Of a DNA stretch of 64,000 nt, positions 17,935-62,005 are shown in pieces. The first letter of the stretch is position 1. Each line of letters starts with the position of its first letter. Source of the stretch: Clostridiales bacterium (GTDB lineage Bacteria > Bacillota > Clostridia > Oscillospirales > CAG-272); contig JAJQCT010000023.1 of NCBI GenBank assembly GCA_021202555.1, forward strand, positions 10,865 through 74,864, read 5' to 3'. A program made the position numbers and the translations under genes. Under the pieces are notes generated by a model that saw only the letters and a program-made list of their open reading frames with translations, ran no database searches and was not told the origin of the DNA.

Positions 17935-18802
17935 GCCGCTCGAATATCTTTGAGACCTCGTTTTTCTTTTTTCGGCTTATCGCGATTATTATCGCATCTA
18001 TAAGCGAAAGCGGCGCGACAAGCGAATCCATGTACGACGCCATATCGCTTTTGGCAAAGAGCATAACATCAGAGTATGGGGCGATTGGAGAATTTTCGCC
18101 GTCGGTAATGCAGATAACTTTCGCCCCGCAGTCCTTTGCGAACTGAACGGCTTTGATAATTCTCGTCGAATATCTCGGAAAGGTCATCGCGATGAATACG
18201 TCGCCCTTCCCGATTTTAAGCATCTGCTCAAAAATTTTGCTTTCGGAGGTCGTGTCAATGTGGGTGACGTTTTCAAACACAAGCCCGAGATTGTACGCAA
18301 GCACGTCGGACAGAAGCGACGTTGCTCTCGCGCCCGCGACATAAACACGACCCGCCTCAATTATGGAGTCGATAAACGAGTTGAAATTGTCCTCATCGTT
18401 CACCTCGAGCGTCGATTTTATCTTCGCAATATCTGACATGAGCGTTTTTGAAAGCACGTCTGATTTTCCGATTCGCTCGTCCGTCACCTCGATGCGCTGA
18501 ACTGATGTGAGCGCCGCGTCAGCGTATTCGCGAAGCGCCCTCTGCATTTCGGGATAGCCGTCGAATCCCAGCTCGCAGGCGTACCGCACAACCGTCGATT
18601 CCGACGCGCCAGCCCGCTCTCCGAGCCTTGACGCCGTCATGTACGCCGCTTTGTCGTAATGCTCCAGAATGTAGTCCGATATGCGCCTCTGCCCCTTTGA
18701 CATATCGGGAAGGCGCACGCGTATTTCATCAAGTATGTTTCCCGTCATAAGCTTAAGCCTTTTATTATCTTTTGTCCTTGATTTTCTAAATTTATAAGTC
18801 AT
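17882..18802 (-). CDS. MurR/RpiR family transcriptional regulator (HTH + SIS domain)
   Basis: 306-aa ORF with an N-terminal HTH_6-like region ('MSKGQRRISDYILEH') and a C-terminal SIS domain. Alternative ATG at 18748. Confidence 0.8.
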   Translation of the reverse strand: MTYKFRKSRTKDNKRLKLMTGNILDEIRVRLPDMSKGQRRISDYILEHYDKAAYMTASRLGERAGASESTVVRYACELGFDGYPEMQRALREYADAALTSVQRIEVTDERIGKSDVLSKTLMSDIAKIKSTLEVNDEDNFNSFIDSIIEAGRVYVAGARATSLLSDVLAYNLGLVFENVTHIDTTSESKIFEQMLKIGKGDVFIAMTFPRYSTRIIKAVQFAKDCGAKVICITDGENSPIAPYSDVMLFAKSDMASYMDSLVAPLSLIDAIIIAISRKKKNEVSKIFERLEEVWDKYEIYEKNTGG

Positions 18803-19689
18803 TCGATTGAATCGTCAAGCCCGACAATTACGTATGTAATGACGTCGCCGTCCCAGACATAATTTGTCCCTGCTCTGCCCGAGGTCGGCTCCTCACCGTT
18901 TACGGTGTAGCCCCAGAAGAAAATCTCCGTCTCCTCGCCGCAGTAAAGCGTACCGCCCGCATATCCAGCAACCGTCGAAATGCTCATTCCCGTCAGGTCG
19001 AGCGTATATTCAACGCCGTACTCCGAAAGCGCCTTAGTAACGGCATCAAGCACAGTCACGGCACCGCCGTCAATCCCGATCGTAACGGTGACGGAATCCA
19101 GAATGACGCGCTCCGATTCGGATATATCGTAAAGCTCGATTGTTTCCCCCTCCGTTTCGGATTCGGAATCATTCCCCTCGGTTTCAGTGCTGCCGTCCTC
19201 GCCGCTCTCAAACGTCTCGTCATCGCCCGTTTCATTTGCCGCGTCGAGCGCCGCCTGCATTTCGGCGTTGACGGTGTATATCAGATATTCGGCGTACTTG
19301 TCGCCAAGCTTTACGGTTACGGTCACGCTTATTGATGCGCCTGACGAGGATGTGCCGCCGCTTGTCGATGACGTTTCGTCACTGTCCGCGGCTTTGTCCG
19401 CTTCAGACGAGGATTCGGCGCTCGTTTCAGCCGGCGTTTCGTCCGTTTCCGTGTCCGATATGTCGTCGGCAGCATCTGCATTTTCAGTCGTTTCCTCCGC
19501 CGTTTCCCGTGAGCTTTCTTCTATGATTTCCGAGATTTTCGTTTCCGTTTCGGAGTCTCCGACGGTCTGGGTTGTGTCGTCGCCCGCGGGATTGCCGGAG
19601 CATGAATAGACCGCAAACACTATCGCCGAAAGCACACATAAAACAGGTATAACGGCAAAATATTTTACGTTTGCTCTCATTGAAGGCAA
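18799..19689 (-). CDS. Lipoprotein with acidic low-complexity linker and DUF4430-like C-terminal domain
   Basis: Signal peptide plus Cys ('FAVYSCSG'), then a long D/E/S/T-rich region. The C-terminus ('FFWGYTVNGEEPTSGRAGTNYVWDGDVITY') resembles DUF4430. Confidence 0.45.
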   Translation of the reverse strand: MPSMRANVKYFAVIPVLCVLSAIVFAVYSCSGNPAGDDTTQTVGDSETETKISEIIEESSRETAEETTENADAADDISDTETDETPAETSAESSSEADKAADSDETSSTSGGTSSSGASISVTVTVKLGDKYAEYLIYTVNAEMQAALDAANETGDDETFESGEDGSTETEGNDSESETEGETIELYDISESERVILDSVTVTIGIDGGAVTVLDAVTKALSEYGVEYTLDLTGMSISTVAGYAGGTLYCGEETEIFFWGYTVNGEEPTSGRAGTNYVWDGDVITYVIVGLDDSIE

Positions 19690-19730: not shown

Positions 19731-19775
19731 CATAAGACTTGAATGATGAAGCTTTGGGCTTAGCTCAATGTCTTA
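19731..19775. repeat. Degenerate copy of the hairpin-1 repeat element
   Basis: CATAAGACTTGA-ATGATGAAGC-tttggg-CTTAGCTCA-ATGTCTTATT shares flanks and apex with the element at 56165-56205 (..AGACTTGAGCGGCGAAGC-ccag-CTTCGCCGCTCAGTGTCTTATT..). Confidence 0.35.
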
Positions 19776-19864
19776 TTGTATCATAAAATCGTTGTTTTGT
19801 CAAGTGCTTTTTTTGACGTTTTGGACGTCCTCACAAAAAATTCAGACAGCGAAAAGCAATTCGC

Positions 19865-23337: not shown

Positions 23338-23344
23338 GCTAAAC

Positions 23345-23371
23345 AAAAAACGCGGGATTCCCGCGTTTTTT
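23345..23371. terminator. Bidirectional rho-independent terminator between convergent genes
   Basis: AAAAAACGCGGGA-t-TCCCGCGTTTTTT. Confidence 0.8.
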
Positions 23372-23382
23372 ATTGTCCTTAT

Positions 23383-23919
23383 TCATTTTTCGGGAAACGC
23401 CTCAATTATAGCCGCCGCGACCTCTTCGGGCGTCATGTTTGTGCTGTCAACGACAAAATCATAATTTGACGGGTCGGCGTAATCAACCTTATAAATATCT
23501 AAAAAGCGCTCTCGTTCAAGCTTGCCGCGCTCCTCGAGAAGCTCCGCCGCCTCCTCTGGCGAGCCGTAGCATTCGACATCTCCTCGCTCGGCAAGAAATA
23601 CGCGGCGTCCCGCCTCCGCCGGCTCGACGGATATAAAGACGCGGAACACGTTTTTCGCAAAATGCCACGCCATGCGCGAATCGAATATGATGTGGTCGCG
23701 TTCCTCGGAGATTTTTTCCACTTCCCTGTCGATTACAAAATCAAGCGAGGGGTCGGTCATCATGCGGCGATTCAGTTCAAGCGTCGTTATACCCATGTCT
23801 GACGCAATTTTTCTTTGAATCTTCCCCGTCGAATAAATCTCAAAGCCGAGACTTTCCGAAAGGATTTTCGTTATGGACGACTTTCCGCTTCCGAGATTGC
23901 CCGTTATGGAAATGTGCAT
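23383..23919 (-). CDS. Cytidylate-kinase-like / AAA-family nucleotide kinase
   Basis: The start is set at MHISITGNLGSGKSS (P-loop). The longer ORF-track start (23979) would run into the tRNA gene. Confidence 0.65.
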   Translation of the reverse strand: MHISITGNLGSGKSSITKILSESLGFEIYSTGKIQRKIASDMGITTLELNRRMMTDPSLDFVIDREVEKISEERDHIIFDSRMAWHFAKNVFRVFISVEPAEAGRRVFLAERGDVECYGSPEEAAELLEERGKLERERFLDIYKVDYADPSNYDFVVDSTNMTPEEVAAAIIEAFPEK

Positions 23920-23954
23920 AAGCCTGACGTTCCTTTGAAAATAGATTTTAATAA

Positions 23955-24028
23955 CCTGCCCGATGCGATTCGAACGCACGACCTGCAGAGTCGGAGTCTG
24001 CTGCTCTATCCAACTGAGCTACGGGCAG
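23955..24028 (-). tRNA. tRNA-Arg (anticodon CCG)
   Basis: 74-nt cloverleaf folded by hand: acceptor CTGCCCG/CGGGCAG, D arm GCTC-AGTTGGATA-GAGC, anticodon arm GCAGA-CT[CCG]AC-TCTGC, T arm GTGCG-TTCGAAT-CGCAT, discriminator G. CCA is not encoded. Confidence 0.9.
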
Positions 24029-24030
24029 TT

Positions 24031-24441
24031 ATGACATTGATAAGTGAAGCATAGCTTCACTTATCAAGTCGATGAATATTGCGCGCAGCGCAATATTCAC
24101 GGTTTAACGAATGTTTTCATATTGCGAAACACAGCTTCGCAATATGAAGTCTGTCAAATATTCTGTTCAAAGCATAGCTTTGCCCAGAATATTTGCAGTG
24201 CAGTAAATAAGTCCTGTAGAATATTGCGTGCAGCGCAATATCCACGGTTTAGCGCATTTTTGATAATGTGAAGCGTAGCTTCACTTATCAAGTCGATGAA
24301 TATTGCGCGCAGCGCAATATTCACGGTTTAGCGAATGTTTTCATAGTGAGAAGCATAAGCAGGCTTCGCAACATGAAGTCTTTTCAGTGCATGAAATCCC
24401 GAACAGTGGAGGCAGCACAGCGCCGATTTCACCGTTCAAGC
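24031..24441. repeat. Tandem array (at least 4 modules) of double-hairpin repeat elements
   Basis: Perfect palindromes lie at 24039-24065, 24074-24098, 24118-24146 and 24296-24320. Near-perfect ones lie at 24157-24194, 24219-24243, 24262-24288 and 24342-24373. Conserved linkers are AAGTC and ACGGTTTA(A/G)CG. Segments 24037-24117 and 24259-24344 are near-identical direct repeats. Confidence 0.85.
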
Positions 24442-24535
24442 GTTTATTTTATCATAAATCTCGTCCCGTGTAAAGAGCAAAACGAAAATTTTTTCCCGTT
24501 TTCCGAAAAAAATTTCCCGACACGCGATTTTTCTC

Positions 24536-24564
24536 TTGACATAAATAAAAAAATGCGGTAATAT
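24536..24564 (+). promoter_or_regulatory. Putative strong promoter for the small membrane protein gene
   Basis: TTGACA (24536-24541), 17 nt, TAATAT (24559-24564). A GGAGG RBS lies at 24603-24607. Confidence 0.6.
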
Positions 24565-24615
24565 ATAAGATGTGAACGCGGTTTTTCGCGCAATTTAATT
24601 TCGGAGGTTTTATCC

Positions 24616-24849
24616 ATGACACTTCATTCGCTTTTCCCAATTTCGTTCAGAGATCGTTCGCTGACGGGTCTTGTAATCGCCATAGTTATTTACGTCGTTG
24701 TCGGCGCTGTCGCGGGCGCGGTTATCGGCTTTTTGTCGTCAATACCGATACTTGGCATCATTTTCTCGATAATCGGCGCGCTTGTCGATATCTACTGCCT
24801 TGTTGGTCTTGTTCTCGCGATTCTTTACTATGCGAAGGTCGTTGAGTAA
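24616..24849 (+). CDS. Small hydrophobic membrane protein (2 predicted TM helices)
   Basis: 77-aa ORF with a good RBS and promoter. It has two G/A/I/V-rich hydrophobic stretches. I recognised no family. Confidence 0.5.
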   Translation: MTLHSLFPISFRDRSLTGLVIAIVIYVVVGAVAGAVIGFLSSIPILGIIFSIIGALVDIYCLVGLVLAILYYAKVVE

Positions 24850-55782: not shown

Positions 55783-56067
55783 ATATTAAGACCATACGCC
55801 GCAAAATCGAAACAATTTCACTCATGTAAACCGCACCCCGCGCTCGGAACAGGCACACCCGCGGCACATCGGATACACCGCTTAATGCTGCTTGGTTCCC
55901 CACCTGACATGGTTCACGGCTTCCGATTGCGCGGGACCCATTCTTCTACGCGCGGAAATACGGCGCAAGCCGAACAAAAAAGCCCCTCAATTGTGGACAT
56001 AACCCCTGCTTCAGCGGATTTCAGGTACAGGACACCGCTAACTCCCCGGTCTGTATGGTCTTAATAT
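55783..56067 (-). ncRNA. ffs: Signal recognition particle RNA, long Bacillus-type (scRNA)
   Basis: The minus strand reads '..GGGGAGTTAGCGGTGTCCTGTACCTGAAATCCGCTGAAGCAGGG..' (Alu domain) and '..GTGAACCATGTCAGGTGGGGAACCAAGCAGCATTAAGCGG..GATGTGCCGCGGGTGTGCCTG..' (domain IV). Both closely match B. subtilis scRNA as I recall it. A 15-bp terminal helix pairs 55783-55797 with 56053-56067. The position upstream of dnaX matches Bacillus. Confidence 0.9.
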
Positions 56068-56164: not shown

Positions 56165-56320
56165 GACTTGAGCGGCGAAGCCCAGCTTCGCCGCTCAGTG
56201 TCTTATTCACGGTTCACACCTCACGGTAAAATTCAGCCTGCATGACATTCCGAGACGAATCACAGATTCGCCTCGGAAGTCAGTCGAATATTCCGCATAG
56301 CGGAATATTCGCGGTTCACG
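56165..56320. repeat. Double-hairpin repeat module, older degenerate module and relic ABC gene 3' end
   Basis: Hairpin 1 at 56244-56281 (GACaTTC-CGAGACGAATC-aca-GATTCGCCTCG-GAAGTC). Hairpin 2 at 56286-56310 (GAATATTCCGC-ata-GCGGAATATTC). Tail GCGGTTCACG at 56311-56320. Relic gene end at 56214-56240. Older hairpin at 56169-56197. Confidence 0.8.
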
Positions 56321-58127
56321 ATTCACGGTAAAACTCCGCCTGTTTGTCGAACATCTCTGTATATATTCCGCCCTTCGCGTAAAGCTCCGAGTGTGTGCCG
56401 TATTCGATTATGTTCCCGTCGTGGAACACCGCTATATTCTCGGCAAGCTTTACCGCTGACATTCTGTGCGTCACAAGCACGGCTCCGCGATTCGTTATCA
56501 TCTCATCGAATCGCTTATATATTTCGTACTCGGCAAACGGGTCAAGCGCCGCTGTAGGCTCATCAAGAAGATATATCGGCGCGTCGTGATATATTGCCCT
56601 CGCTATCGCAATTTTCTGTCCCTCACCTCCCGACGGCTCAAACCCTTCGGGATCTACGCTCTTTCCCACATATGTATCGACTCCCTTTGCTGACTTTGCG
56701 GCAAGATTATCAATATCCGCTTTCCTCAGCGCCTCCTTGAGTTTTTCCCTATCGCACTCCTCTTCAAAGGTTATGTTTTGCGATAGCGGAAGGGTATATA
56801 AACAGAAATCCTGCAGTACTGGCGCAAAGAGCTTTTGATATTTTTCCGGGTCAAATTCCCTGATATTCACGCCGTCAAGCGTTATCTCCCCCTCAGTGGG
56901 AAGGTATAATCTTGTCAAAAGCTTTATGAATGTCGTTTTCCCGGATCCGTTTTCGCCCACAATAGAGAGTTTTTTGTTTGCCTCAAGCTTTATGCTCAAA
57001 TGGCGAAGCGCGTATCTGTCGCTGCCCGGATATTTGAAGGACACATCGTGAAATTCTATCACAGAATCCTCTCTGTACTCGGGCACTCTCTCCCCACTGT
57101 TTTCTTTGGATGTCGCATTTGACCTGAATTTCATCAATTCCTCAATATCAAGAGTGTACGATGTTATTTCAAGATAAACATTGAAAATGGAGCTTAGGGT
57201 CCCCGAAAACTGTCCCGCTGCTGAAATGAATATTGTCATAGATCCTACAGCGAGTGTTCCCGCAATGACCTTCACTACGGCAACCGCATAAAGAAATGCT
57301 GTCTGCAAAGCTGATGTGACGGTATGAACTGTCCGCCATTTTCCGTCAATGCGCATATTTTCCCGGAACAGGTCATTTCTTTCTCTCGCAACCTTTGCAT
57401 AGCACTCTATGAAAAAGTCCTTGGTACCGAAAATGCGCGTTTCCTTGCCGTTCTTTGATGAGGAGGCGTTGCTTGCCGCCACCTGACACCTTTGCTCGAT
57501 TCGCCATTGCTTCATTTCATATCCGTGATTTATTTCATTCAGCTTTTTCGTTACCCAGCTGTTTATCGCAATCGCGGCAATCAGTAAGGCAATAACGGAC
57601 GGGTTCATATATATGATTATATATGAAATAGTGAATATGCGAATCACAGCACTGAAAAGTCTCTCTATAAAATCAAGCATCTCAAACGGAGCCTCCGGCG
57701 CGTGCTCACTGAACATCATCGTAAACATGGATATATTGGGGTCTTCAAGCGACGCATACTCCATGTCGGCGATATATGACTGAAATTCAGCTTGGAATAT
57801 CCTGCGCAGCTCACGTTCAAGCCGTGAACACTTTATACGCAATGTCATCTCCTTCAAATGATTGAACAGCGGAATCGATGCCAAGACTGCCGCATATACT
57901 GCTGCGGTTTTGTATCCGATTTCATCATAAAGGGAGTTGATAATGAGTCCCGGAATGATTGTGTAAAGGAGTGATATAACCGCATCAACAGCGGTGATAG
58001 TCGTTTTCAAAATTAAATAAGCACAGCCTTTTCCTCTCTTCAGCCCGAAAAAGCCCAAAAGATAGCGTATGCAGTTTTTGTTCCTTTTCATATCAGTCCA
58101 AAATGATAAATCTTTAATGTTTTTCAT
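56316..58127 (-). CDS. ABC exporter, fused permease/ATP-binding protein (type I exporter half-transporter)
   Basis: 603-aa ORF with a 6-TM N-terminal domain, Walker A 'GENGSGKT', signature 'SGGEGQKIAIARA', Walker B 'IYLLDEPT' and H-loop 'VTHR'. Confidence 0.85.
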   Translation of the reverse strand: MKNIKDLSFWTDMKRNKNCIRYLLGFFGLKRGKGCAYLILKTTITAVDAVISLLYTIIPGLIINSLYDEIGYKTAAVYAAVLASIPLFNHLKEMTLRIKCSRLERELRRIFQAEFQSYIADMEYASLEDPNISMFTMMFSEHAPEAPFEMLDFIERLFSAVIRIFTISYIIIYMNPSVIALLIAAIAINSWVTKKLNEINHGYEMKQWRIEQRCQVAASNASSSKNGKETRIFGTKDFFIECYAKVARERNDLFRENMRIDGKWRTVHTVTSALQTAFLYAVAVVKVIAGTLAVGSMTIFISAAGQFSGTLSSIFNVYLEITSYTLDIEELMKFRSNATSKENSGERVPEYREDSVIEFHDVSFKYPGSDRYALRHLSIKLEANKKLSIVGENGSGKTTFIKLLTRLYLPTEGEITLDGVNIREFDPEKYQKLFAPVLQDFCLYTLPLSQNITFEEECDREKLKEALRKADIDNLAAKSAKGVDTYVGKSVDPEGFEPSGGEGQKIAIARAIYHDAPIYLLDEPTAALDPFAEYEIYKRFDEMITNRGAVLVTHRMSAVKLAENIAVFHDGNIIEYGTHSELYAKGGIYTEMFDKQAEFYRES

Positions 58128-59945: not shown

Positions 59946-60013
59946 ATGTGCCTCCATAATATTGGTTTTTACTCGTCGCTTTCCGACGCTGTATCTCTAT
60001 AGAACTTTGCCTG

Positions 60014-60092
60014 CATGACATTCATTAACGAATCACAGATTCGTTAATGAAGTCGTCGAATATTCCGCATAGCGGAATATTCAAGGTTCACG
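60014..60092. repeat. Double-hairpin repeat module at the 3' end of the third ABC gene
   Basis: CATGACATTC, then hairpin 1 (60017-60054, core ATTAACGAATC-aca-GATTCGTTAAT), then hairpin 2 (60058-60082, GAATATTCCGC-ata-GCGGAATATTC), then the tail AAGGTTCACG, which contains the gene's stop codon. Confidence 0.8.
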
Positions 60093-61884
60093 TCTCTCTA
60101 TAAAACTCTGCTTGTTTGTCAAACATATCACGGTATATTCCGCCCTTTGCGTAAAGCTCCGAGTGTGTGCCGTATTCGGCGACGTGACCGTCATCAAACA
60201 CAGCGACTTTATTCGCAAGCTGTACGGCGGAAAGCCTGTGCGTAATCAGAACGGCGCACTTTCCGTGTATCATTTTATGGAACTGAGCATAGATTTCATA
60301 TTCCGCTCTCGGATCAAGCGCCGCCGTAGGCTCATCCAAGAGGTAAATATCTCCGCCGTGATAAATAGCTCTGGCTATGGCAATGCGCTGCCCCTCACCT
60401 CCCGACGGCTCAAACCCGTCAGGGTCAATAAATTTCCCGATTTTGGTATGCTCCTGCTTCGGAAGCGAGGCGATAAGGTCTGTAAGCCCCACGTCGTCTA
60501 TTGCGGAATGCAGCTTTTCGCTGTCAATGTCGTCGCTAAGACAGATATTATCCTCAACCTCAAAGCTGTATCGGCAAAAGTCCTGAAAAACGGGAGCGAA
60601 AAGACCGATATACTCATAATAATCGAAGGAATAGATGTTTTTGCCGTTGAGCAGGATTTCACCCTCGGTGGGATAGTACATTCTCGTGAGCAGCTTGATG
60701 AATGTAGACTTGCCCGACCCGTTTTCCCCGACAATACAAATGCGCTCATCGCTTCGTATCACAATATTCAGGTGACGAAGCGCATAACGGTCACTTCCCG
60801 GATACTTAAAGCTTACATCCTTGAATTTTATAGTGAACTCGCCGCTCAAATCCGGATGCTCGGTTCCGCTGCTTATCTGTCTTTGCGGGATTGAGAAGAA
60901 GTCCGAGATGTCGTTCAGGCTGTATTTCATGCTCGCCAAGGACAAAACGGAGCCTGAAAGTTTATTAAGCGAGCTGCTGAGCTGTTCAACAGATGAGATA
61001 CAAATTGTCATGGTTCCGACCGAAAGAACGCCTCTCAAGACCTGAACTATAAGATAGCAGTACAAAAACACCTGCTGAACAAACTTTCCGACAACGGAAA
61101 TTCCGCTGACCGCGATTGTCTTTCTCTTATATTTCAAATCGTGTCGGTTTGTCTCCTCCTCGTTCTCCATCATATGGTCTATCAAATAGTCCTTGCTTTT
61201 GAACATCCGGATTTCCTTGGCGAACTCGGTTTCCTGCAAAATGTAGATAAATGTATCGCGTATTCTGTTCAGTATGTCGGATTCAAGCTCACTCTCTCTG
61301 CCCTTTTTCACAAGCCACTTTGACGCAAAGAAATTGATGATTGCCACAGCTATTACTATGAGCACCATCCACGCATTGAGCGTAAATACGAGCGTTATGA
61401 CGAGGCAAAACTGAATAATGGCGCCAAGCACACCGCAGTAATTATCAACAACGGAGGGCAGCGCTTCAATGGCGTTCAGCGCACGGAATTTAAGCTGGTC
61501 TACATCCGGCTTTTCCAGCTCTTCAAGGTCAATTTCGGCAATTTTACCGTACATGAGCCTGTTGCTGTTGTTGTTGAATTTTGACAGCACAGTTGTCGTC
61601 AGATATTCAATGGGCTTGTTCACAGCGAAAAGCAAAAGCGGCGAGCCGACAATCGCGGCGGCATAAAATGCAATCCGACTCATGCTCTGCTCTCCCGTCA
61701 GCTCATCAATCAAAAGTCCCGGAAACATGACAAATACAAGCGGGAGCAATGAGTTCAAAACTGAGCTTATGCACCGCAGAATAATATAGAGCTTCCCGTT
61801 TGCCTCACGGCTCCACACGTACTCTAACCCCTGAAACGATGAGTTGATTGTGCGTATGTTTTCCTGAAATAAAGTGTGTTTCAT
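60088..61884 (-). CDS. ABC exporter, fused permease/ATP-binding protein (third paralog)
   Basis: The start is set at MKHTLFQEN (ATG 61884), because a consensus promoter lies inside the longer ORF-track extension. It has the same NBD motifs: 'GENGSGKS', 'SGGEGQRIAIARA', 'IYLLDEPT'. Confidence 0.85.
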   Translation of the reverse strand: MKHTLFQENIRTINSSFQGLEYVWSREANGKLYIILRCISSVLNSLLPLVFVMFPGLLIDELTGEQSMSRIAFYAAAIVGSPLLLFAVNKPIEYLTTTVLSKFNNNSNRLMYGKIAEIDLEELEKPDVDQLKFRALNAIEALPSVVDNYCGVLGAIIQFCLVITLVFTLNAWMVLIVIAVAIINFFASKWLVKKGRESELESDILNRIRDTFIYILQETEFAKEIRMFKSKDYLIDHMMENEEETNRHDLKYKRKTIAVSGISVVGKFVQQVFLYCYLIVQVLRGVLSVGTMTICISSVEQLSSSLNKLSGSVLSLASMKYSLNDISDFFSIPQRQISSGTEHPDLSGEFTIKFKDVSFKYPGSDRYALRHLNIVIRSDERICIVGENGSGKSTFIKLLTRMYYPTEGEILLNGKNIYSFDYYEYIGLFAPVFQDFCRYSFEVEDNICLSDDIDSEKLHSAIDDVGLTDLIASLPKQEHTKIGKFIDPDGFEPSGGEGQRIAIARAIYHGGDIYLLDEPTAALDPRAEYEIYAQFHKMIHGKCAVLITHRLSAVQLANKVAVFDDGHVAEYGTHSELYAKGGIYRDMFDKQAEFYRET

Positions 61885-61927
61885 AGTAATGCACCTGCTT
61901 ATCCCGAAATTTGTCATCAACAAATCC

Positions 61928-61956
61928 ATTATACGGGGCGAAAATGCGTTTGTCAA
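61928..61956 (-). promoter_or_regulatory. Consensus sigma-A promoter of the ABC exporter genes
   Basis: Minus strand: TTGACA (61956-61951), exactly 17 nt, TATAAT (61933-61928). Confidence 0.7.
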
Positions 61957-62005
61957 GGGGTGCAAGTTTCAAATCATTCAACTTCGGGATTTAAGGCTTT
62001 TTCGT

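Follow-up and report, generated by a model that had tools for sequence, protein, structure and literature searches.

A tandem array of hairpin-forming repeats lies beside the only tRNA gene in a 64-kb stretch of DNA from a Clostridiales bacterium (GenBank assembly GCA_021202555.1, contig JAJQCT010000023.1), referred to here as the window. The array proper occupies positions 24033-24380 and consists of four copies of one hairpin (H1), three short copies of a second (H2) and one long H2-like hairpin (X), placed head to tail, and a repeat search resolves its four modules into two copies of a 224-bp higher-order repeat. The neighbouring gene, tRNA-Arg(CCG), does not encode its CCA end and lies downstream of the array in the direction of transcription. 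An initial annotation, prepared from the letters of the window, had assigned 24031-24441 to the array; the element is real and its coordinates hold to within 2-4 nt, except that 24381-24441 is non-repeat sequence. The features of the locus are listed below, with array parts read on the minus strand unless stated otherwise.

23955-24028, minus strand: tRNA-Arg(CCG) (ARAGORN; Rfam RF00005, 63.4 bits)
24033-24070, minus strand: H1 copy M1, GACTT GATAAGT GAAGC tat GCTTC ACTTATC AA(T)GTC (covariance model, 58.5 bits, E 6.5e-14)
24075-24097, minus strand: H2 copy c, AATATTGCGC tgc GCGCAATATT, a perfect palindrome (repeat search)
24098-24112, minus strand: linker with tag, ATTCGTTAAACCGTG, whose ACCGTG abuts H2 (sequence)
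24113-24151, minus strand: H1 copy M2, GACTT CATATTGC GAAGC tgt GTTTC GCAATATG AAAAC (covariance model, 37.2 bits)
24155-24195, minus strand: hairpin X, AAATATT CTGGGCA AAGC tat GCTT TGAACAG AATATTT (repeat search)
24220-24242, minus strand: H2 copy b, GATATTGCGC tgc ACGCAATATT, imperfect, with a minus-strand G-U pair (repeat search)
24257-24294, minus strand: H1 copy M3, GATAAGTGAAGC tac GCTTCACATTATC (covariance model, 25.8 bits)
24299-24321, minus strand: H2 copy a, AATATTGCGC tgc GCGCAATATT (repeat search)
24337-24380, minus strand: H1 copy M4, a hybrid with 5' arm CATGTTGCGAAGC, 3' arm GCTTCTCACTATG and an enlarged loop (covariance model, weak, 8.5 bits, E ~8)
24381-24440, minus strand: non-repeat part of the 5' leader with its own hairpin (GAACGGTG...CACTGTTC), kept in all metagenome-assembled genomes (MAGs) of the species
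24446-24474 (24474->24446), minus strand: promoter-like site TTTACA-17-TG-n-TAAAAT, 10/12 matches, just upstream of the array
24536-24564, plus strand: divergent promoter-like site, serving the small membrane-protein gene at 24616

Followed along the minus strand, the locus begins with the promoter-like site and ~60 nt of unique leader with its hairpin, continues through H1(M4)-linker-H2 and CATC-H1(M3)-linker-H2, and, 25 nt after the second H2, reaches hairpin X, GACA, H1(M2)-linker-H2 and CATC-H1(M1)-ATAA-tRNA. The first base of H1 falls at 24033, leaving 4 nt (ATAA) between M1 and the tRNA 5' end, where 2 nt had been reported. H1 follows a constant plan, GACTT / 7-8 variable nt / GAAGC / 3-nt loop / GCTTC / complement / AA(T)GTC, in which the T is bulged. 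Across copies the apex reads GA-R-K-C / T-R-Y loop / G-M-Y-TC, and base, bulge and apex are fixed while the stem middle is replaced wholesale. M1 forms 17 bp with its bulged T and folds at a free energy (dG) of -21.4 compared with -4.0 in shuffled sequences, and M2 has an 8-bp variable part and an apex G-U pair on the minus strand. H2 in the array is AATATTGCGC-tgc-GCGCAATATT, an instance of a general plan with an AATATT base and a variable inside, and X joins an H2-like base to an H1-like apex; the orthologous X of GCA_021205025.1 (L082) has 18 pairs.

Every H2 of the array is immediately preceded by ...AAACCGTG. The initial annotation had described a conserved tail at the end of each module; the conservation stands, but the motif is an ACCGYG tag that precedes H2 and, at the ABC exporter genes described below, directly follows the stop codons. 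This tag stands ahead of H2 at all three kinds of locus in all genomes examined. The whole unit on the minus strand is composed of the ACCGYG tag, H2, 4-6 nt and H1, two hairpins in ~80 nt, with the flanks ACCGYG / H2 / C(A/G)(A/T)C / H1 / AT(A/G). The repeat search returned perfect hairpins of 14 bp at 24037-24067, 13 bp at 24116-24148 and 12 bp at both 24073-24099 and 24297-24323, a hairpin at 24155-24195 with 19-nt arms that are 89% complementary, and a direct repeat of 24044-24131 against 24268-24355 (94%). H2 plus tail was found by the same search in three copies starting at 24074, 24219 and 24298; the third of these had been placed at 24296, so the copy exists at a slightly different start. 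Open reading frames (ORFs) inside the array have no Pfam match and no conserved length, and the array differs between strains by large rearrangements and indels. It is therefore not coding, as had been supposed from the lack of a credible ORF.

The folding of this region far exceeds expectation. A 417-nt region reaches -174.9 kcal/mol on the minus strand (shuffled sequences, -100.1 +/- 5.4; z -14.0) and -166.8 kcal/mol on the plus strand (z -10.6). Long hairpins in the window (at least 11 pairs, at most one mismatch) number 15, of which 10 are family members and the remaining 5 are terminators or lie within coding DNA. Individual hairpins, 23 bp for H2 and 38-40 bp for H1, fall in the 20-40 bp size range of REP units and have dG values between -12 and -28 kcal/mol; in 28/30 copies z is about -3 to -9. 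For 28 of the 30 distinct H1 sequences the fold beats 199 or more of 200 shuffles, and 20 of the 30 retain 15 or more pairs; these fold statistics were used because a MAFFT alignment of the 30 copies contained asymmetric gaps and was set aside for pair counts. Even the M4 hybrid still folds, with 13 bp and z -3.2.

A covariance model of H1, run unfiltered on both strands of the window, matched positions 24033, 24112, 24258, 56165, 56244, 60017 and 19736, with a weak match at 24336 (E ~8); nothing further in the window fell below E ~1. The window thus holds 8 H1 copies at 4 loci, two of the loci being paralogous ABC genes. The model recovers the sites that the initial annotation had pointed out at 56241-56320, 60014-60092, 56165 and 19731-19775. 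Covariation was measured on 17 mostly intact distinct H1 copies drawn from all loci and genomes. In this alignment 97.6% of cells are paired, against 79.4 +/- 1.5% with shuffled partners (0/500 shuffles reach 97.6%), and pairing drops to 28-40% when the partners are slid by 1-3 columns. Ten of the 18 H1 pairs are altered on both sides, two of them in the apex, where the variants GAAGC/GCTTC, GAATC/GATTC, GAGGC/GCCTC and AAATC/GATTT occur. Five unrelated stem classes are represented: GATAAGT; CATA(A/T)TG(T/C); (C/T)A(T/G)TAAC; CCGAGGC; and GAGCGGC or GAGTGAT. The modular hairpin family described at first, constant in base and apex and with compensated changes in the stem middle, is accordingly upheld, with hairpins confirmed and covariation strong.

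Five other MAGs of the species, with 95-97% identical flanks, were reached by exact-protein look-ups, and the stretch read amounts to ~64-90 kb per genome (the 64-kb window and ~20-40 kb per related genome). All five bear the array at the same position, ending ...AATGTC(A/T)TAA before the tRNA with the H1-to-tRNA gap of 4 nt in all six array-bearing genomes, and its composition differs in each:

GCA_965297975.1 (L084): 2 H1 + 1 H2
GCA_021205025.1 (L082): 2 H1 + 1 H2 + X
GCA_021204965.1 (L073): 2 H1 + 2 H2
GCA_021199515.1 (L079): 3 H1 + 2 H2
the window: 4 H1 + 3 H2 + X
GCA_021201675.1 (L086): at least 6 H1 + at least 5 H2 + X, interrupted by a 100-N gap

The copy-number variation for which the initial annotation had proposed to look is therefore present, from 2 to at least 6 H1 across six genomes. 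The arms themselves are exchanged as well. The stem of the tRNA-proximal H1 is GATAAGTG in the window, L079 and L084 and (C/T)ATATTGCG in L082, L073 and L086. A hybrid H1 with 5' arm CATATTGCGAAGC and 3' arm GCTTCTCACTATG, the M4 hybrid, is shared by the window, L079 and L073, and another in L084 joins CATAATGTGAAGC to TTCGCAATATG. A comparison of arms across strains shows that those of M3 likewise come from two different H1 variants, with one bulge as the result. The array copies once called degenerate are indeed imperfect, but they are hybrids of arms from different H1s. Additionally, the H2 loop is TGC in the window, GCA, its reverse complement, in L082, and TAT or TGT elsewhere. Hybrid arms, an inverted loop and varied composition point to unequal recombination, arm exchange and template switching as the sources of this diversity.

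The minus-strand promoter-like site upstream of the array is kept in every related genome, including L075 (GCA_021199825.1), a relative whose flanks are ~79% identical. L075 has the same promoter and tRNA, ~60 nt apart, and no array. Since the promoter is kept in this array-free relative, the array is an insertion and expansion inside the 5' leader of tRNA-Arg, and its adjacency to the tRNA follows from insertion and amplification in the leader below that conserved promoter. A promoter candidate within the tRNA-proximal H1 (TTGATA...TATCAA) was rejected, its spacer being 19 nt and its stem varying between strains while the upstream promoter is conserved.

Beyond the tRNA locus, the unit occurs at the ends of ABC exporter genes and at a site near position 19736, where the following features were recognised.

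56244-56318, minus strand: unit after the third ABC gene (H1 by covariance model, 56.7 bits)
56165-56243, minus strand: duplicated 3'-end fragment of an ABC gene together with an H1 (sequence)
60017-60090, minus strand: a unit inserted into the first ABC gene's 3' end (H1 by covariance model, 58.5 bits)
59969-60016, minus strand: displaced original 3' end of the first ABC gene (..QAKFYRDTASESDE and stop), now non-coding, intact in L076 (9900-9947)
19736-19772, plus strand: decayed H1 (covariance model, 19 bits)
19775-19803 (19803->19775), minus strand: promoter-like site TTGACA-17-TG-n-TACAAT, 11/12 matches, abutting the 19736 copy

Three paralogous minus-strand ABC exporter genes all end in ...GGIYTEMFDKQAEFYRE(x) and a stop, and H2 begins 6 nt past the stop codon. 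After the third gene, the stop TGA (56316-56318) is followed by the tag ACCGCG (56310-56315), H2 at 56287-56309 (AATATTCCGC tat GCGGAATATT), CGACT between H2 and H1, and H1 at 56244-56281 (stem CCGAGGC/GTCTCGG). Directly behind it, 56243->56208 is a 36-nt near-copy of the last codons and stop of the same gene (ATGCAGGCTGAATTTTACCGTGAGGTGTGAACCGTG), followed by a second H1 at 56165-56202 (stem GAGCGGC/GCCGCTC; 53.2 bits on the plus strand). This copy, previously taken as degenerate, pairs perfectly over 13 bp and carries its bulge on the opposite arm; it alone is built oppositely, all units of the tRNA array and of the L082 array sharing one orientation. The unit at the first gene comprises the stop TGA at 60088-60090, the tag ACCTTG, an H2 at 60059-60081 identical to that of the third gene, and H1 at 60017-60054 (stem CATTAAC/GTTAATG), downstream of which lies ATGCAGGCAAAGTTCTATAGAGATACAGCGTCGGAAAGCGACGAGTAA.

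The history of the first gene is legible in GCA_965297975.1 (L076), where the junction between the first and second genes (A-B) is empty and the gene runs ...GACAAACAGGCAAAGTTCTATAGAGATACAGCGCCGGAAAGCGAGGAGTAA, the very sequence that in the window is left beyond the unit. Hence the unit came with a paralogue-type gene end (QAEFYRET and stop), displacing the original tail, and the first gene (60088-61965, minus strand) now ends ..QAEFYRET and stop. Homologues elsewhere mostly run 5-20 residues past FYR(D/E), in agreement with the displaced tail as the ancestral end. Tandem units at the ABC genes number 1-3 across genomes: L078 (GCA_021199515.1) has 2 at the first-gene junction and 3 after the third gene, each with ~27 nt of duplicated gene end, and further tandem units are seen in L085 (GCA_021201675.1), where the first gene is deleted and a unit with a TATTAAC stem lies after the third gene instead (in the window, the CATTAAC stem lies after the first). 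A 24-nt imperfect repeat flanking the unit at the A-B junction was considered as a target-site duplication (TSD) and rejected: its left copy fits the paralogue gene end and its right copy fits the empty site, which indicates gene conversion between paralogues. Because the unit travels with a copy of the gene end, homologous exchange between paralogous 3' ends is enough to spread it among the ABC genes.

Further observations concern the same region. The third ABC gene (56316-58127) is absent in GCA_965297975.1 (L076 10001-12238), whose second gene ends with the tag and half an H2 (GCGTGAACCGCGAATATCCCGC), and in GCA_021201675.1 (L085 5790-6000) a promoter-like site takes the place of the deleted first gene. 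The bacterial large RNA of the signal recognition particle (SRP) lies at 55792-56058 on the minus strand (RF01854, 176.9 bits), and its promoter-like site, TTGTAA-17-TG-n-TATAAT at 56133->56105, is directly downstream of the ABC repeat units.

Site 19736 illustrates decay as well as expansion. The window retains a decayed H1, while L073 and L079 carry an intact one, GACTT GAGTGAT GAGGC tgt GCCTC ATCGCTC AATGTC. Most genomes have 0-1 intact copies at this site, L086 has two units, and L082 has about five tandem units of 110 nt, each consisting of H1, a linker ending CACCGTG, and a long H2 (AATATT GAATCC GAATC tgc GATTT GGATTC GATATT). Given the adjoining promoter-like site, the 19736 repeat would lie at about +1 of the 5' untranslated region (UTR) of the gene at 18799-19689, in antisense orientation.

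The family was sought well beyond these genomes. A strict H1 pattern gave 2 matches in 185,579 species genomes, both in coding sequence with non-complementary variable positions and thus due to chance; the window species' own genome was not among the collections scanned by pattern. Neither the 57 loci matching an H1-base plus H2 pattern in JGI metagenomes nor the 11 matches of an H2-plus-tag pattern in viral contigs had, in the proper context, the features of H1 or an H2 whose interior is palindromic, and BLAST of the array against plasmid and phage records gave no match. At the gathering threshold of Rfam 15, only the tRNA and the SRP RNA pass in the window; a permissive scan of 23900-24650 yielded only hairpin-like microRNA matches far below threshold, so the earlier statement that no named family is recognisable holds at either setting. 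No transposase, integrase or Y1_Tnp domain was found in the ORFs of the window or in ~100 kb of related loci, no GTAG or CGTC tag at the hairpin feet on either strand, and no terminal inverted repeat (TIR) or TSD at the tRNA and 19736 sites. The three insertion contexts share no evident target, the tRNA and 19736 sites having been compared without a truly empty site in a close relative. Intrinsic terminators were also considered and rejected: the array hairpins lack a U-tract and none is listed on the minus strand, the only candidate being 56168-56198 on the non-gene strand.

What is observed, then, is a modular unit at three kinds of site, whose copies have been gained, lost and reshuffled within the species while pairing was maintained. 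On balance, the array is probably a locally amplified cluster of a young, species-restricted family of hairpin repeats, similar to REP/BIME or BOX elements. It adds a new, unnamed family to the well-known REP/BOX class of bacterial repeats and is not a new kind of system. From its position, the array would be transcribed in the 5' leader of tRNA-Arg and removed after cleavage by RNase P. It appears to be a tolerated passenger that the tRNA does not need, because it is absent in a sister species and its copy number within the species runs from 2 to at least 6. Arrays may lengthen and shorten through unequal recombination or replication slippage between units. Recombination and template switching, between arms and between copies, may do most to keep the units palindromic, alongside some purifying selection on the forming of hairpins. 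The hairpins after the ABC genes are probably 3' RNA hairpins with an influence on the stability or expression of the mRNA.

The initial annotation had taken different stems that all preserve pairing as pointing to selection on structure. Pairing is indeed kept, but selection is not the only reading: hybrid arms, an inverted loop and wholesale stem swaps point to recombination and template switching, which can make and keep palindromes without selection. Template switching is known to create and maintain hairpins with seemingly compensatory changes (PMC8794818, PMC7202029). The products of quasipalindrome template switching share with the array the one-step homogenisation of arms, the TGC->GCA loop inversion, the hybrid arms and the appearance of compensation (PMC8794818, PMC7202029). 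Template switching is, however, a mutational mechanism and not an element family, and it cannot explain a composite unit at unlinked loci. Moreover, pairing in a DNA palindrome does not tell RNA, single-stranded DNA and palindrome-making mutation apart.

Among the roles proposed at first, a REP/BIME-like element is the closest in kind. Shared features include palindromes of 23-40 bp in extragenic transcribed DNA, often just past coding regions; composite clusters of two hairpin types with short linkers in species-specific families; an unpaired base in an imperfect stem; and, beside the hairpin, a short conserved motif. REP copies inside gene ends are also known (PMC3733652, PMC8266576). REP palindromes, however, bear an unpaired GTAG or CGTC tag at one end (PMC3733652) and typically exceed 100 copies per genome (PMC2817692). 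The array lacks this tag, and its units run head to tail instead of alternating in orientation. At least five unrelated stem classes coexist in one genome, whereas the stems of a REP family share sequence. The Bacillota (Clostridia-like) host falls outside the usual REP hosts, no RAYT/TnpAREP gene, which in REP families is usually single-copy with REPs on its flanks, was seen in the window or related loci, and the 8 H1 at 4 loci in 64 kb appear to be few. The pneumococcal BOX element, with RUP and SPRITE, offers a second parallel in a Firmicute host: it is modular, with an internal module repeated a variable number of times, and has strong secondary structure. BOX, RUP and SPRITE are species-restricted, transcribed repeats judged to be parasitic and not functional, and BOX is intergenic, co-transcribed with its neighbours and limited to one species and its closest relatives (PMC3049150). 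Unlike BOX, whose terminal boxA and boxC surround boxB in the fashion of miniature inverted-repeat transposable elements, the array shows neither terminal modules nor a sequence relationship, and its unit of two hairpins is much smaller.

Several points weigh against this explanation. The 8 known H1 copies lie at 4 loci, and genome-wide multiplicity, the hallmark of REP and BOX, remains beyond the stretch read. No TIR, TSD, tag or transposase was found that would account for the first arrival of the unit at unlinked loci. The linkers of the tRNA, ABC and 19736 loci are not significantly similar beyond ACCGYG in local alignment against shuffles; a derivation of the tRNA- and 19736-locus linkers from the last codons of the ABC genes was rejected at alignment p = 0.24 and worse. 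Transcription of the array is predicted from consensus promoter matches alone. The 17 copies used for covariation were chosen as mostly intact and are related by descent, so that the covariation counts are inflated. The comparison genomes are short-read MAGs whose contigs often end inside arrays, one of them with a 100-N gap, and copy numbers may err. Finally, a specific protein could be what recognises the strictly conserved base, bulge and apex and the loops with their T-R-Y bias, in which case the repeat would be more than a passenger.

The strongest rival holds that an HUH/Y1 enzyme (RAYT/TnpAREP-like or IS200/IS605-type), encoded elsewhere in the genome, uses H1 and H2 as its single-stranded-DNA substrates. 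A Y1 transposase substrate was among the roles first proposed; no such gene exists in the window, and the explanation is retained as unlikely but with appreciable weight. The two-hairpin unit would then be a minimal element made of a left end and a right end, which would account for both dispersal and tandem clusters. Two unlike hairpins per unit, the lack of TIR and TSD, an unpaired base in the conserved lower stem and ACCGYG before H2 all fit this picture. In Escherichia coli TnpAREP, the lower stem, the unpaired bulge and a 5' motif matter, and the upper stem-loop is structural and swappable (PMC8266576), a set of determinants that the conservation of H1 resembles. The apex, however, is conserved here too, contrary to the TnpAREP model.

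The strands also differ in a way that would suit such an enzyme. Among imperfect copies the module strand is more stable than its complement in 15/25, equal in 6/25 and less stable in 4/25, and at site 19736, where the module strand is not the predicted transcript, it is still the more stable in 3/4 intact copies. GC skew is negative over the whole window (1-64000) and nearly all genes lie on the minus strand; from this skew the window belongs to one replichore with the minus strand leading, and the module-sense strand at the tRNA and ABC loci, being the leading-strand sequence, is the lagging-strand template. A C-to-T mutation bias can, however, produce strand asymmetry unaided. The absence of Y1_Tnp or any transposase from the window ORFs and ~100 kb of related loci speaks against the enzyme, as do the missing GTAG/CGTC tag (PMC3733652) and the head-to-tail units, which differ from alternating BIMEs and REPINs, and paralogue gene conversion explains the ABC spread without a transposase.

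Two classes of element that act as folded single strands provide comparisons here. The ends of IS200/IS605 elements and of their transposase-less derivatives carry two unlike subterminal hairpins, have no TIR or target duplication and act in a strand-specific manner, inserting 3' of a fixed short target; the hairpin is recognised as folded single-stranded DNA, with unpaired bases as determinants (PMC8266576). The array shares these two different hairpins, the lack of terminal inverted repeats and of target duplication, and apparently the strand specificity; it differs in having no transposase gene nearby, no tetra- or pentanucleotide target readable from three sites, hairpins only 4-6 nt apart and stems that vary. 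The attC sites of integrons, which also work as folded single strands, are imperfectly palindromic: their ends are conserved, their middle varies but stays self-complementary, and they have extrahelical bases. H1 has the same imperfect palindrome, conserved ends, variable paired middle and extrahelical base; nevertheless, the R''/R' core sites (RYYYAAC/GTTRRRY) are not found at the hairpin ends, no ORF with a Pfam match lies between hairpins, the window contains no integrase, and the hairpins stand in arrays without intervening cassette genes. A GTTAAAC in the tRNA-locus linker was tried as an attC core and rejected, since it fits GTTRRRY at chance-level odds and the ABC loci have GTGAACC.

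A bolder form of the idea, to which only a small likelihood is attached, holds that H1 and H2 are the two ends of a new class of untagged hairpin mobile element in Clostridia-like Bacillota that moves as folded single-stranded DNA. In that event an HUH-type or other structure-specific enzyme would read only the lower stem, bulge and apex and leave 7-8 bp free to vary, and the family would have been caught young, in one species, with 0 to at least 6 copies per site and still remodelling gene ends.

Less probable again is that the hairpins are functional RNA elements under selection, serving as sites for a protein or ribonuclease that controls the tRNA-Arg precursor and the ABC mRNA. The partner would read the base, bulge and apex and affect processing or stability. 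Strong covariation agrees with this, and every site is predicted to be transcribed, as a leader, a 5' UTR or a 3' UTR/intercistronic segment. Spacing is fixed, with H2 6 nt past the stop and H1 4 nt before the tRNA in 6/6 array genomes, and the loops are biased to T-R-Y on the module strand. Module orientation equals the predicted RNA at the tRNA and ABC loci, where mismatches read as G-U, not A-C, on the transcribed strand. Two such mismatches, A-C on the plus strand and G-U on the minus strand, are present as the initial annotation described them, but the weak preference it drew from them for a minus-strand RNA is not supported: the asymmetry tracks module orientation, the 19736 array is antisense, and mutation bias is possible. 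A C-to-T bias on the minus (leading) strand would yield the same G-U asymmetry, so the strand evidence can be produced by either cause and does not decide between them. Against a functional RNA stand the related species with the same promoter and tRNA and no array, the range of 2 to at least 6 copies within the species, and broken hybrids that persist in several genomes. Further objections are the antisense placement of the 19736 array relative to its predicted transcript, the opposite-arm bulge of the 56165 copy and the lack of a matching Rfam family; confinement to one species would be unusual for a regulatory RNA with a dedicated protein.

It is very improbable that the palindromes are double-stranded operators for a dimeric DNA-binding protein, such as a transcription factor or nucleoid protein, beside promoters: the 23-bp palindrome of H2 is perfect, its half-sites have constant AATATT ends and two arrays abut promoters, but duplex binding needs no self-complementary variable interior (the 7-8 bp of H1, the long H2), yet pairing is kept there, the bulged base and asymmetric loops would have no role in it, the ABC copies follow stop codons, and copy number is unconstrained. 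Hardly any credence is given to a short-read MAG assembly artefact, at which Logan contigs ending within the array and the 100-N gap in one MAG might hint, given that arrays of the same design occupy the same position in six assemblies from different samples, that independent Logan contigs give exactly the same bases for the tRNA-proximal H1 and the beginning of H2, and that the unit recurs at other loci with clean junctions to unique sequence.

Small structured repeats are widespread in bacteria, yet their birth, spread and early dynamics are rarely seen, most described families being old and abundant. This family, from an uncultured gut-type Bacillota species, is absent from the sister species, and its copy number shifts at every site among genomes 3-5% apart. 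It rewrites the C-terminus of an ABC transporter gene and sits inside a tRNA precursor; the tRNA-leader location, the remodelling of gene ends and the cassette-like stem classes are instructive features. It offers a usable natural case for asking whether palindromy is kept by selection or by template switching, and whether REP-like families can arise without a RAYT. In practical terms, the arrays break short-read assemblies at these loci and may serve as strain markers.

Several minor observations were made on the surroundings. The genes of the neighbourhood are housekeeping in character (V-type ATPase, DnaX/YbaB/RecR, SRP RNA, glycoside hydrolases and similar). Two genes without a Pfam match adjoin the arrays, 24616-24849 (plus strand), encoding a 77-aa predicted membrane protein, and 18799-19689 (minus strand), encoding a 296-aa protein. 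On contig JAJQHX010000006.1 of GCA_021199515.1, the ABC/SRP region (L078, 45-67 kb) and tRNA-Arg (L079, 349-370 kb) are ~300 kb apart, compared with 32 kb in the window, and the genes past RecR differ (Wzz, CbiA-like, LytR), through either rearrangement or MAG misassembly. A bidirectional terminator at 23342-23374, between kinase-like and sulfatase genes (AAAAAACGCGGG-att-CCCGCGTTTTTT), appears in GCA_021205025.1 (L082 10532-10592) as a palindrome with a 28-bp stem, and this extension is another sign of palindrome growth in the lineage. Lastly, an unrelated conserved motif, ..CGTGAAGAGGGTTAAGTCACAGAATATTTTCCGTAAGAAAATATTC.., appeared among the chance pattern matches in the metagenome contigs L009 (6687, 8068), L033, L026, L049 and L059, and on two contigs CGTGAAGAGGGTTAAGTCACAGAATATTTTCCGTAAGAAAATATTC occurs twice, 1381 bp apart.

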